In this document: positions 4,903 through 26,041 of the stretch, piece by piece | How positions within the stretch are numbered: the stretch's first letter is position 1 | Layout: each line of letters starts with the position of its first letter | Sequence record: PZ445488.1 | Strand: one strand, 5' to 3' | DNA from: a phage | Length of the DNA: 64,000 nt | The notes under the pieces: generated by a model | Databases searched by the model: none | What the model saw: the letters and a program-made list of their open reading frames with translations, nothing else | What the model was told of the DNA's origin: nothing | Made by a program: the position numbers and the translations under genes

Positions 4903-5200
4903 TAATGATGTCCTCAATAGCCTGACGAGTAGTAACCCACTGGATTTTAATTAACTTGTCATTATATGGTTGTCGTAGAATATCCCGAGATTTCTTAATA
5001 GCATATTCGTAAGCTTCGAAGTTGTTTTGAATTGCTGCTTCTTGAGCATGAGCATAAAGACGGTTTAGTTCAAAACGATTCTTTTTAAGAATCTTTTCGG
5101 ATTTTTTACGTGCTTCAGCTTCATTTTTCTTTTGGATTTCTTGTAGCATTTTAGCTACTGCATCTTCTGCTTCTTTATTTTCAATAATCTCGGTAGTCAT
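4877..5200 (-). CDS. hypothetical protein
   Basis: 107 aa ORF with ATG start, Lys/Glu-rich. Confidence 0.45.
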   Translation of the reverse strand: MTTEIIENKEAEDAVAKMLQEIQKKNEAEARKKSEKILKKNRFELNRLYAHAQEAAIQNNFEAYEYAIKKSRDILRQPYNDKLIKIQWVTTRQAIEDIINGASSNKV

Positions 5201-5201
5201 A

Positions 5202-5417
5202 TTATCTCATTAAATTAAAATAAAAACGTCCATCCTCTTCAATACAGAACTCATACTCAACCGGAGTCCCATTTATCGAAAATGACACGTCATGTGGGTT
5301 CAAAGGGTCGATGTCAAAATTAATTTTAAATTCACGACCCAACAGTTTTACCAAATAAGGGATTGCTTCGTCAAAAGGTTCTTCTAAGTAGTTAGAGATG
5401 TCAATTGTCATCCTCAT
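5202..5417 (-). CDS. hypothetical protein (start uncertain)
   Basis: ORF immediately downstream of gene 55; internal Met chosen to avoid long overlap with 55. Confidence 0.35.
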
Positions 5418-23593: not shown

Positions 23594-23783
23594 AAGAGTC
23601 CTTAGTTAAATTTTCTAAATATGTTTCTAAATCATTTTCAGCTTTATTGATAGATTTTACTAATTCGTAATATGTTTCGGCATCTCCATATTCAGAAGAT
23701 ATTTCAAAAGACAAATCCTTTTCTAAACTAATAATTTCACCAACTAAAAATAATATTTCGTTCTTTTGTTCGCGAGTAATCAT
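23586..23783 (-). CDS. hypothetical protein
   Basis: 65 aa acidic ORF, ATG start. Confidence 0.4.
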   Translation of the reverse strand: MITREQKNEILFLVGEIISLEKDLSFEISSEYGDAETYYELVKSINKAENDLETYLENLTKDSYG

Positions 23784-23971
23784 AAGGAATTTATATAATT
23801 AATAAGTTCTTGTTCTTTATTATCGAATTCTTTAGAAAGTTCTTCGTACTCGTTTTCACTAAAAGGACCGCATTCATTACAAACTTTTTCCAATTCACTA
23901 TTTTTATCCATAACTTCGTGGATAAGAGAAAAGAGTTTGTCTTTTTGTTCTTTACTTAAACTCATAACCAT
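23780..23971 (-). CDS. hypothetical protein
   Basis: 63 aa ORF, ATG start. Confidence 0.4.
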   Translation of the reverse strand: MVMSLSKEQKDKLFSLIHEVMDKNSELEKVCNECGPFSENEYEELSKEFDNKEQELINYINSL

Positions 23972-24174
23972 GTCACCTTTAAGCAGTATTCTTCTACATG
24001 CTGTTTACGACCTTTCTTATCAATAAAGGTATATTCAACGAATGTTCCGATGTAGTCTTTATCTACATCATGTGGACTATTAATTGGACATTTGGTACGA
24101 CAAATGCGTTCCCATTGACGAATAATTACTGCCTTATTCTTTGGGTCATATGGATGCGGATAATGTATATTCAT
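23962..24174 (-). CDS. hypothetical protein
   Basis: Track start is TTG; in-frame ATG at 24174. Confidence 0.4.
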   Translation of the reverse strand: MNIHYPHPYDPKNKAVIIRQWERICRTKCPINSPHDVDKDYIGTFVEYTFIDKKGRKQHVEEYCLKVTWL

Positions 24175-24638
24175 AATAATGGTTCCCAATCAACAATCAC
24201 AATTTCTAGTTTAGTGGAATACGTATCTAAAATCTCTTCGATGACATCCCAGTTTCCACCACCTATACCTGCACCAATTCTTGGCATATAAATTACAGGC
24301 TTTGCTATCTTATTCTTTCCGAATTTATTTAATTCTATTATACAATTCATTAAAGCAGAGTACTCAAAATTAGGTCCCGGCTCAAACTGCGTATAAAGAT
24401 TAAAGCAATAAGCTTTATGGGTCTTGAAATATTTTTCATAAACCGAATAGGAACCGAGTTTAGTCTCATCGCCGAATTCGGTTTGGAGCTTATCGGCTTC
24501 TAAAATCTTTGGAAAGGCCTTCGCTAATTGCCCGGCTACTCCTGCGCCCATTGTATGGAAACAGTTACAACCATGAGCAACATTTTTACCTTCAGAAAAC
24601 AGGGCGACAATATCGCCCTTGATATAGTTTTTAATCAC
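24171..24638 (-). CDS. TARG1/OARD1-like macrodomain protein (putative ADP-ribosyl hydrolase); apparent GTG start
   Basis: 155 aa; YIKGDIVALFSEGKNVAHGCNCFHTMGAGVAG and MPRIGAGIGGGNWDVIEEIL align with TARG1 motifs (KGDLF...AHC...MGAGIA; MPRIGCG...W..V..IEE). Confidence 0.7.
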   Translation of the reverse strand: MIKNYIKGDIVALFSEGKNVAHGCNCFHTMGAGVAGQLAKAFPKILEADKLQTEFGDETKLGSYSVYEKYFKTHKAYCFNLYTQFEPGPNFEYSALMNCIIELNKFGKNKIAKPVIYMPRIGAGIGGGNWDVIEEILDTYSTKLEIVIVDWEPLL

Positions 24639-24978
24639 TTGCTACAAGTCCTCTAGTATAAGAGTCAACTAGACGGTCCACCATAGAATTGCATGCTGCC
24701 TTATCTTTAGGTTCCGCCACCGAGCATTCTAATATTTGCCATTTTTTATAGTATCTTTTAATTAAGGTAGATGCCTTGAACCTACTAGACGCCCCATCTT
24801 TTTCTCCGTCTTTATACGCATATAACAATTTTTGTGAAAAATCTACTTTACACTCTTGACTTTTACCACAATAATCAGACGCCGTTCTGTTTGTATACTC
24901 CGTTACATCAGTATATGTAGTATTAGCAAGAGCGTTAAATGAAACCAAGCTAACTATTAAAGCCAACATTTTGGTCAT
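24631..24978 (-). CDS. small secreted protein; positional counterpart of T4 vs
   Basis: 115 aa (same length as T4 Vs by memory); N-terminal signal-like segment; position between macrodomain gene and vs.1-like gene. Confidence 0.4.
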   Translation of the reverse strand: MTKMLALIVSLVSFNALANTTYTDVTEYTNRTASDYCGKSQECKVDFSQKLLYAYKDGEKDGASSRFKASTLIKRYYKKWQILECSVAEPKDKAACNSMVDRLVDSYTRGLVASD

Positions 24979-25991: not shown

Positions 25992-26041
25992 TCTCCTCTA
26001 GTTGACAGGTCTATAGTAACACAACTAGAGGAGAAGTAAAC
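25992..26041 (-). promoter_or_regulatory. PeSL-like early promoter with stem-loop upstream of regB
   Basis: 13-nt inverted repeat TCTCCTCTAGTTG/CAACTAGAGGAGA flanking TATAGT; GTTTAC on minus. Confidence 0.5.

Follow-up and report, generated by a model that had tools for sequence, protein, structure and literature searches.

The adfM locus

The window that we analyzed, a stretch of 64,000 nucleotides of phage DNA (record PZ445488.1), contained a single ORF at positions 24171..24638 of the minus strand, as indicated by the ORF listing of the window. The translation included YIKGDIVALF, VAHGCNCFHTMGAGVAGQ and YMPRIGAGIGGGNWDVIEEIL, and the ORF list and translation bore out the 155-aa ORF and the sequence blocks quoted in a previous reading of the DNA letters (the sequence-only reading). 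Judging from sequence, the ORF is the orthologue of the T4 gene tk.4, and we use the newer name of that gene, adfM, for both. The gene order tk–tk.1–tk.2–tk.3–tk.4–vs–vs.1–regB was identical in T4, phage moskry, and the window, in agreement with the earlier proposal that the ORF adjoins tk and occupies the T4 tk.4 slot. The features of the locus are listed below, with the basis for each in parentheses.

26013..26041, minus strand: site resembling a T4 early promoter, GTTTAC-N17-TACTAT, 5' of regB (read by eye)
24631..24978, minus strand: vs (valyl-tRNA synthetase modifier), the upstream neighbor (ORF list, synteny)
24649..24653, minus strand: Shine-Dalgarno sequence GAGGA, 10 nt 5' of the GTG and within the 3' end of vs (direct reading)
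24171..24638, minus strand: adfM, the tk.4 orthologue, encoding a single-domain macrodomain protein of 155 aa (ORF list, Pfam, AF2)
24638..24636 and 24173..24171, minus strand: GTG start and TGA stop of adfM (ORF list)
24534..24575, minus strand: predicted ADP-ribose-binding loop 1, codons 22-35, HGCNCFHTMGAGVA, containing N25 (alignment)
24387..24401, minus strand: catalytic-position motif NLYTQ, codons 80-84 (MAFFT alignment A2, hhalign)
24249..24284, minus strand: predicted glycine-rich diphosphate-binding loop 2, codons 119-130, PRIGAGIGGGNW, with G126 at the TARG1 D125 position (alignment)
23962..24174, minus strand: tk.3, the downstream neighbor (ORF list, protein comparison)
23610..24260, no strand assigned: T4-like DNA block of about 650 bp with 96-100% identity (sliding-window identity)

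A megablast search with the 23.0-25.6 kb region matched 673 phage records. The best matches were 97-98% identical and belonged to the genus Mosigvirus (RB69-like phages); PNJ-6, HX01, moskry, and SHSML-52-1 were among them.

The sequence-only reading had also proposed that the gene starts with GTG, and this start was supported by three observations. The GTG of the window paired codon for codon with the ATG that starts T4 tk.4, the same GAGGA was located 11 nt 5' of the T4 ATG by direct sequence reading, and the N-terminal MI.. was kept throughout the family in our family alignment (A1). The start of adfM overlapped the vs stop by 8 nt (GTGATTAA), compared to 4 nt in T4, and the stop of adfM overlapped the tk.3 start codon (24174..24172) as ATGA. 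Such overlaps reflect the tight packing that is usual for T-even early gene arrays.

The window and T4 AdfM proteins were 86% identical (95% similar) over 155 of 155 residues without gaps. The two genes share the slot between vs and tk.3, the GAGGA sequence, the invariant residues described below (including Q84), and the allele class. They differ in the start codon (GTG versus ATG) and at 21 residues, one of which lies in loop 2, where the window protein has the family consensus G127 and T4 has K127.

The T4-like block covered the 3' end of adfM, tk.3, tk.2, and tk.1, and its flanks were only 60-85% identical to T4, which indicates a recent exchange. The encoded proteins were also compared three ways, with those of the Tequatrovirus vB_SsoM_113 added. 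For tk, vs, vs.1, and regB, T4 and vB_SsoM_113 were 99% identical to each other, and the window was 66-83% identical to both. The pattern was inverted for tk.2, tk.3, and tk.4: window-T4 identities were 95, 100, and 86%, respectively (the Tk.3 proteins being the same), and T4-vB_SsoM_113 identities were 56, 91, and 58%. Based on these sequence comparisons, the adfM locus is mosaic.

The promoter-like site upstream of regB is a candidate source of a regB-vs.1-vs-adfM-tk.3 transcript. The genes downstream of this site were co-directional and tightly packed or overlapping, and this array, adfM included, is probably transcribed early. The strict T4-early promoter pattern had no match. A generic sigma-70 scan of 22.9-27.2 kb identified 12 sites, compared to 15.6 in shuffled sequences, and nothing convincing nearer adfM; with fewer sites than the shuffles, the scan was uninformative. 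Within the ORF, one site (24357..24332) resembled a MotA box but was set aside, as it was not conserved in T4. Separately, a terminator-like hairpin at 24619..24601 was kept in three phages, with weak folding z-scores (-2.4, -0.9, and -0.9).

Macrodomain fold and active site

We are confident that the adfM product is a macrodomain. The protein scored 28.9 bits with the Pfam Macro family (PF01661), for which the gathering threshold is 22 (E=1.2e-6), and residues 22-136 aligned with profile positions 2-117, which covered 116 of the 118 positions. PHROG 335, a family labeled phosphatase, was matched at E=1.4e-65. A sequence search of the PDB retrieved Bacteroides BT1257 (E=1.7e-11), yeast Poa1p (1e-8), Streptomyces coelicolor SCO6735 (1.4e-4), Thermus DarG (2.6e-4), Mycobacterium tuberculosis DarG (2.8e-3), and human TARG1 (5e-3). 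The AF2 model of the protein had a pLDDT of 92.6, and its top Foldseek match was human TARG1 (4j5r; E 4.7e-10). The nearest folds were BT1257, Poa1p, DarG, TARG1, and SCO6735; the ALC1-like/TARG1 class (TARG1, DarG, Poa1p, and SCO6735) was nearer in fold than the MacroD-type, viral, PARG, and macroH2A macrodomains. A fold search of this kind had been suggested as a check in the sequence-only reading, and its outcome, a macrodomain with TARG1 as top match and DarG among the nearest folds, was the one expected there. The match to the NCBIfam DarG model (NF048014) reached 32.4 of the 250 bits required and covered positions 11-146 of 338; this match and the PADLOC DarG match were weak and below threshold, and we took them as evidence of class rather than of membership.

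Relatives of adfM were found by tblastn in 2,790 of 50,697 phage records, and the hosts of these phages included Escherichia, Klebsiella, Salmonella, Pseudomonas, Vibrio, Acinetobacter, and Aeromonas. With the window protein as reference, identity was sharply bimodal: 381 of the records were at least 80% identical, 5 were 60-80% identical, and 2,404 were below 60%. The NLYTQ motif was present in both allele classes in alignment A1. Together, the Pfam Macro match, the PHROG 335 match, and the relatives in 2,790 phage records confirmed that the ORF is real and not due to chance. adfM is a real, functional gene and an ordinary one for a T-even phage.

Next, we compared the ADP-ribose-binding loops and the catalytic position with those of characterized macrodomains. 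The reference sequences were taken from the PDB search alignments; the TARG1 sequence was verified against PDB 2lgr, and the SCO6735 numbering was confirmed via V25, Q85, and K89, which are given in PMC9411070. In alignment A1, H22, G23, N25, C26, G33, and A35 of loop 1 and P119, I121, G122, and G124 of loop 2 were invariant. In the MAFFT alignment with the reference proteins (A2), Q84 of the window protein shared one column with Q84 of T4 AdfM, Q85 of SCO6735, and a Gln of BT1257. The same column contained K84 of TARG1, the Lys of both DarG proteins (K80), and a Lys of gp104, a macrodomain of phage PhiKZ. Residue D125 of TARG1 faced G126 of the window protein. Thus, the proposal that the protein carries the signature blocks of the TARG1 family was right in that the blocks are present, but these blocks are the ADP-ribose-binding loops of the whole class, and the TARG1 catalytic residues K84 and D125 are replaced by Q84 and G126 here.

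The hhalign comparisons gave the same placement of Q84. The family profile aligned with SCO6735 at 98.2% probability (E 3e-14), with N80-L-Y-T-Q84 opposite N81-M-I-G-Q85; in SCO6735, five additional residues follow the Gln. The alignment with PhiKZ gp104 (95.5%, E 1.5e-8) placed Q84 opposite the K of FPTK. In phmmer pairwise alignments with BT1257 and SCO6735, a gap kept Q84 off SCO6735 Q85; this placement was overruled by the MAFFT and hhalign results. In the AF2 model, Q84 is located in the loop right after strand 75-81, where the catalytic residue of this class is also placed. Residue Q84 was invariant in all 32 sequences of A1, down to 37% identity. In addition, Q84, N80, and Y82 were invariant in 120 of 120 retrieved homologues and in 81 of 81 sequences when 80 bacterial relatives were added (all 80 of which had the Gln). 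This invariance in phage and bacterial relatives fits selection on an active site. With a Gln in the column that holds the Lys of DarG and TARG1, T-even AdfM belongs with the Gln-type proteins SCO6735 and BT1257, and not with the Lys-type proteins DarG, TARG1, and PhiKZ AdfM.

Some of the existing annotations point in a different direction. In the closest public records, the gene product is called "macro domain protein," "phosphatase," or "Poa1p_like family protein"; the T4 tk.4 entry reads "contains A1pp phosphatase motif," and the JGI label of relatives is O-acetyl-ADP-ribose deacetylase. The phosphatase, A1pp, and deacetylase labels, including that of PHROG 335, and the high rank of yeast Poa1p in both the sequence and the fold searches would suit a small-molecule enzyme, either a Poa1p-like ADP-ribose-1''-phosphate phosphatase or an O-acetyl-ADP-ribose deacetylase. 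We judged such a function to be very unlikely. The "phosphatase" and "A1pp" labels are inherited domain names and not assays, and Poa1p has a Ser in place of the Gln that is invariant in the AdfM family (LFTSS versus LYTQF). When the neighbors of the bacterial relatives were inspected, Tpt1/KptA or sirtuin genes were not beside them. Furthermore, a small-molecule activity would leave the DarTG2-specific phenotype of T4, described below, unexplained.

A predicted role against DarTG2

DarTG systems stop phages via DNA ADP-ribosylation. In T4, full resistance to DarTG2 remained after deletion of both adfA and adfN, and a further factor was predicted (PMC11825919). The tk.4/AdfM result filled this gap. 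Specifically, a T4 transposon library was selected on a DarTG2-expressing host in the HIDEN-SEQ study (bioRxiv preprint, 20 November 2025), tk.4 was the sole significant match of the screen, and a clean tk.4 deletion made T4 sensitive to DarTG2 (10.1101/2025.11.20.689424). The gene was renamed adfM (anti-DarT factor Macrodomain), a likeness to the M. tuberculosis DarG macrodomain structure was noted, and the authors wrote that it "seems likely" that ADP-ribose is taken off the DNA enzymatically (10.1101/2025.11.20.689424). The suggestion in the sequence-only reading that a phage copy could reverse DarT-type DNA ADP-ribosylation was therefore supported, but with a role already known from the T4 orthologue. 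The T4 experiment was carried out on the same allele class as that of the window, which strengthens the transfer of function, and sequence similarity suggests that the DarTG2 phenotype would carry over from T4 to Mosigvirus.

We propose that the adfM product is a free-standing macrodomain that defends replicating phage DNA against DarTG2, likely by hydrolysis of thymidine-linked ADP-ribose, and we put the probability of this explanation at about 0.75. In the proposed pathway, host DarT2 ADP-ribosylates the second thymidine of TNTC in single-stranded phage DNA, and this blocks replication. The two conserved loops of AdfM, loop 1 (residues 22-35, including N25; HGCNC..MGAGVA) and loop 2 (residues 119-130), most likely hold the ADP-ribose, and the protein then most likely hydrolyzes the thymidine-ribose bond. 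Q84 would position the distal ribose, and the product would be normal, replicable DNA. By analogy with SCO6735, the chemistry is probably Lys-independent; the Lys mechanism of DarG and TARG1 is unavailable here. The same analogy suggests that AdfM would act by catalysis on dT-ADPr DNA rather than by binding-based neutralization and that Q84 would be essential for its activity.

Several findings count against this explanation. The window protein has neither the catalytic Lys of DarG nor the longer, Lys-bearing mobile loop of SCO6735. It also differs from T4 AdfM at the 21 positions noted above, one of them the G127/K127 exchange in loop 2.

The missing Lys would also fit a protein that neutralizes DarTG2 without catalysis, by binding and inhibiting DarT2 or by shielding the modified DNA, in the manner of AdfA and AdfB, which block DarT by interacting with it. 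Catalytically dead SCO6735 (Q85A), DarG (K80A), and TARG1 (K84A) still inhibit the activity of DarT on DNA through interaction, SCO6735 most strongly (PMC9411070), and hydrolysis is thus not the sole possible route. The deeply divergent allele classes and the mosaic locus would fit an arms-race interface as well. However, the ADP-ribose site (H22, G23, N25, G33, N80, Y82, Q84, G122, and G124) was invariant from phages to free-living bacteria in which a single-probe search detected no nearby darT, which suggests selection on the chemistry of the ligand and not on the surface of one toxin. In addition, the DarT-binding C-terminal domain of DarG is missing from the window protein, which has 155 aa compared to the 338 positions of the DarG model. 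We therefore consider non-catalytic neutralization to be unlikely.

A different proposal, a version of which was raised in the sequence-only reading, is that AdfM erases ADP-ribose from protein or RNA, either to tune the phage's own Alt, ModA, and ModB enzymes or to reverse the action of host ARTs, and that the DarTG2 phenotype is a side activity. T-even phages encode several ADP-ribosyltransferases, which speaks for such an eraser. Against it, Alt and ModA target arginine, and the arginine linkage is not known to be cleaved by TARG1-class macrodomains. No ART gene was found adjacent to adfM. TARG1 and SCO6735 take protein (Glu/Asp-linked) and DNA substrates alike (PMC9411070), but T4 did not require tk.4 on plain E. 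coli K-12, and the screen singled out the gene specifically with the DarTG2 host (10.1101/2025.11.20.689424). On balance, a main function on protein or RNA seemed quite improbable.

AdfM might also bind or degrade immune signals derived from ADP-ribose, or the products of NAD+ breakdown, as an anti-Thoeris factor or against other NAD-based defenses. This idea is extremely unlikely, because the protein showed no specific similarity to known sponges, its best matches were all TARG1-class glycohydrolases, and the literature examined described no phenotype in its favor. Hydrolysis of thymidine-linked ADP-ribose remained our preferred explanation. An anti-DarTG2 role explains why about 2,800 phage genomes retain this small gene. 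In T-even phages, AdfA, AdfN, and AdfM appear to form a layered toolkit against DarTG. In practical terms, an intact adfM of the same class in RB69-like phages helps to predict their host range on DarTG2 strains and hence the choice of therapeutic phages.

Bacterial relatives and comparison with known systems

We scanned 185,579 species-representative genomes and found 193 relatives of the T-even family. Among the best 80 of the 193 loci, the proteins almost always had a single domain and a length of 140-160 aa, and residue 84 was always a Gln. A tblastn search with one P. aeruginosa DarT2 probe, which has limited sensitivity, detected no DarT2 homologue within 4 kb on either side of these 80 loci. 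There was also no conserved partner gene; the neighbors were varied housekeeping genes on Ruegeria, Desulfobacter, Shewanella, Stieleria, Pseudoalteromonas, and Flammeovirga chromosomes. A single-domain, Gln-type protein with no nearby darT looks like a stand-alone macrodomain that was recruited by phages and not like a captured DarTG antitoxin. We consider it an even chance that T-even AdfM arose by independent recruitment from a widespread bacterial clade of stand-alone "genome-guardian" proteins in which N-x-Y-T-Q is invariant (members of which include Desulfobacter, Ruegeria, Shewanella, and Stieleria proteins) and that it clears thymidine-linked ADP-ribose from DNA with the Lys-independent Gln/water chemistry of SCO6735. 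If this is true, Gln-type enzymes may act more broadly, on DNA and on protein Glu/Asp-ADPr, whichever toxin made the modification.

AdfN (T4 gp30.3) follows the same strategy as the one proposed here, as it is a phage orphan ADP-ribosylglycohydrolase that undoes DarT damage (PMC11825919). However, AdfN has an unrelated NADAR fold, removes only the guanosine-linked ADP-ribose made by DarT1, and does not act against DarTG2 (PMC11825919).

DarG (5m31, 5m3i, and 7omu) has a catalytic Lys, a C-terminal DarT-binding domain, and an adjacent darT gene, all of which are absent here. Human TARG1/OARD1 (4j5r) has the same two ADP-ribose-binding loops as the window protein and also cleaves dT-ADPr DNA (PMC9411070), but its K84/D125 dyad corresponds to Q84/G126 here. 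The catalytic residues used by these enzymes differ: TARG1 uses the Lys84/Asp125 dyad, DarG uses only a Lys (K80), and SCO6735 uses neither and has Gln85 instead (PMC9411070).

SCO6735 (5e3b) cleaves thymidine-linked ADP-ribose on DNA and guards against DarT, and its Q85A variant is inactive (PMC9411070). In simulations of SCO6735, the Gln at the DarG K80 position holds the distal ribose while an activated water attacks (PMC9411070). The similarity of the window protein to SCO6735 and to BT1257 (2fg1/2afc) has limits, as the identity is only 22-31%. Loop 1 reads HGCNCFHTMGAG in the window protein and AHVCNDLGGWGKG in SCO6735 and BT1257. SCO6735 also has a longer mobile loop with Lys89 and Lys94, which are implicated in DNA binding (PMC9411070). 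The corresponding loop after the Gln of the window protein (QFEPGPNFEY) contains no Lys and, at TARG1 length, is 5 residues shorter than that of SCO6735 (QHGMKTGSKGAPVRY). The resemblance of T-even AdfM, which lacks the DarG Lys, to Gln-type SCO6735 was a point that we did not find in the literature examined. By this analogy, T-even AdfM, with its 155 aa, may offer enzymologists a natural and very compact system in which to study DNA de-ADP-ribosylation that does not depend on a Lys.

A precedent is PhiKZ gp104, which was also named AdfM, independently of T4 AdfM (Cell Reports 2026; PMC13309987). In vitro, when DarT2 has ADP-ribosylated the second T of TNTC sites on ssDNA, gp104 removes the modification; it also rescues DarT2 toxicity, and an N23A mutant is impaired (PMC13309987). 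As proposed for AdfM here, gp104 is encoded by the phage as a free-standing macrodomain and acts against DarTG2, and its loop 1 residue N23 aligns with N25 of the window protein. The two proteins differ in several respects. gp104 belongs to a different, DarG-type subfamily (E 9e-25 to M. tuberculosis DarG) and retains the Lys of FPTK, and a BLASTP comparison with the window protein aligned only 23 residues. In addition, gp104 enters the phage nucleus by import, and its activity was demonstrated biochemically, whereas the activity of T-even AdfM is predicted. The word "lysine" is absent from the text of both AdfM papers (10.1101/2025.11.20.689424; PMC13309987); thus, the distinction between Gln-type and Lys-type proteins appears undiscussed. 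The residual novelty would then be mechanistic, as the sequences suggest that T-even AdfM forms a lineage of stand-alone, Gln-type proteins separate from the DarG-type AdfM of PhiKZ. If two macrodomain subfamilies were indeed recruited, phages would have arrived at anti-DarT2 activity by convergence on at least two occasions. The name AdfM now spans two different macrodomain lineages, one in T-even phages and one in PhiKZ.

A T4-like block and two adfM allele classes

When the window was compared with T4, 96-100% DNA identity was observed across one stretch of about 650 bp, as follows.

23610-24260: T4-like block, covering the 3' end of tk.4 (adfM), tk.3, tk.2, and tk.1

The genes flanking this block (tk, vs, vs.1, and regB) were only 60-85% identical to those of T4, and this contrast indicates that the T4 and Mosigvirus lineages have recently exchanged DNA horizontally at 23610-24260. 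At the protein level, Tk.3 and Tk.2 of the window were 100% and 95% identical to their T4 counterparts, respectively. In the mechanical ORF list, tk.3 was a 75-aa gene with a TTG start (23962-24189, minus strand). The true start is likely to be the ATG at 24174, because it yields a 70-aa product identical to T4 Tk.3 and overlaps the adfM stop codon as ATGA.

We also compared adfM (24171-24638) with its counterparts in T4 (4923-5390 of that locus) and vB_SsoM_113 (2501-2980). In the T-even phages, tk.4/adfM fell into two classes of allele that have diverged deeply. One class was common to T4 and the window (86% identity), and the other, which was present in many other Tequatroviruses, was about 57% identical to both. 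The distribution of identities was bimodal, with the 60-80% range almost empty, and the genes flanking tk.4/adfM in the Tequatroviruses of the second class were 99% identical to those of T4. This dichotomy may have arisen through replacement of a cassette or in an arms race with variants of DarT2.

Promoter-like sites and a hairpin in the adfM region

The whole window was scanned for MotA-box-like middle-promoter patterns (TGCTTNA-N11-13-TANNNT). The pattern was enriched, with 12 occurrences versus 3.6 expected, and none of 100 shuffles reached 12. The local elements were as follows.

24332-24357, minus strand: MotA-box-like site inside adfM, directed at tk.3 through tk
24601-24619, minus strand: terminator-like hairpin, adfM codons 7-13
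26013-26041, minus strand: T4-early-type promoter-like site (GTTTAC-N17-TACTAT) inside the 61-nt gap that precedes regB

The MotA-box-like site inside adfM had no counterpart in the T4 region. Downstream of the early-type site was a palindromic sequence, CTCCTCTAG...CTAGAGGAG, which spanned the regB Shine-Dalgarno sequence. The candidate hairpin, with the sequence AGGGCGAUAUUGUCGCCCU and a U-rich tail, was located about 20 nt into the adfM ORF and was kept in T4 and vB_SsoM_113. In the MFE fold of the window sequence, its U-rich tail was also paired with the Shine-Dalgarno region. The folding z-scores of the hairpin were weak (-2.4, -0.9, and -0.9).

Annotation of relatives and other genes of possible relevance

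Public annotations of close relatives carried propagated errors, as seen in phage moskry across the region matching roughly 13-28 kb of the window. There, the 70-aa Tk.3 was labelled "putative ABC transporter ATP-binding protein," the homologues of Vs.1, vs.7, and vs.8 were all given as "endoribonuclease RegB," and every gene in a run of nrdC.x genes was labelled "thioredoxin." Two further regions were placed by analogy with moskry.

~30.4-30.8 kb and ~41 kb: Nudix hydrolase (e.1/NudE slot) and 57A/57B region

The Nudix hydrolase assignment was taken from the moskry annotation. T4 NudE uses ADP-ribose as a substrate and could therefore clear any ADP-ribose that AdfM sets free. The other region is presumably 57A/57B, given our reading of T4 gene order. 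T4 57B is the anti-CBASS protein Acb1 (10.1101/2025.11.20.689424).

Two macrodomain subfamilies under one name

The name AdfM was coined independently by two groups (10.1101/2025.11.20.689424; PMC13309987). Judged from their sequences, the two proteins that bear it are members of different macrodomain subfamilies, and a BLASTP alignment of the T4 Tk.4-type AdfM with PhiKZ gp104 covered only 23 residues. T4 Tk.4 is of the Gln type and resembles BT1257/SCO6735, whereas PhiKZ gp104 is of the Lys type and resembles DarG.
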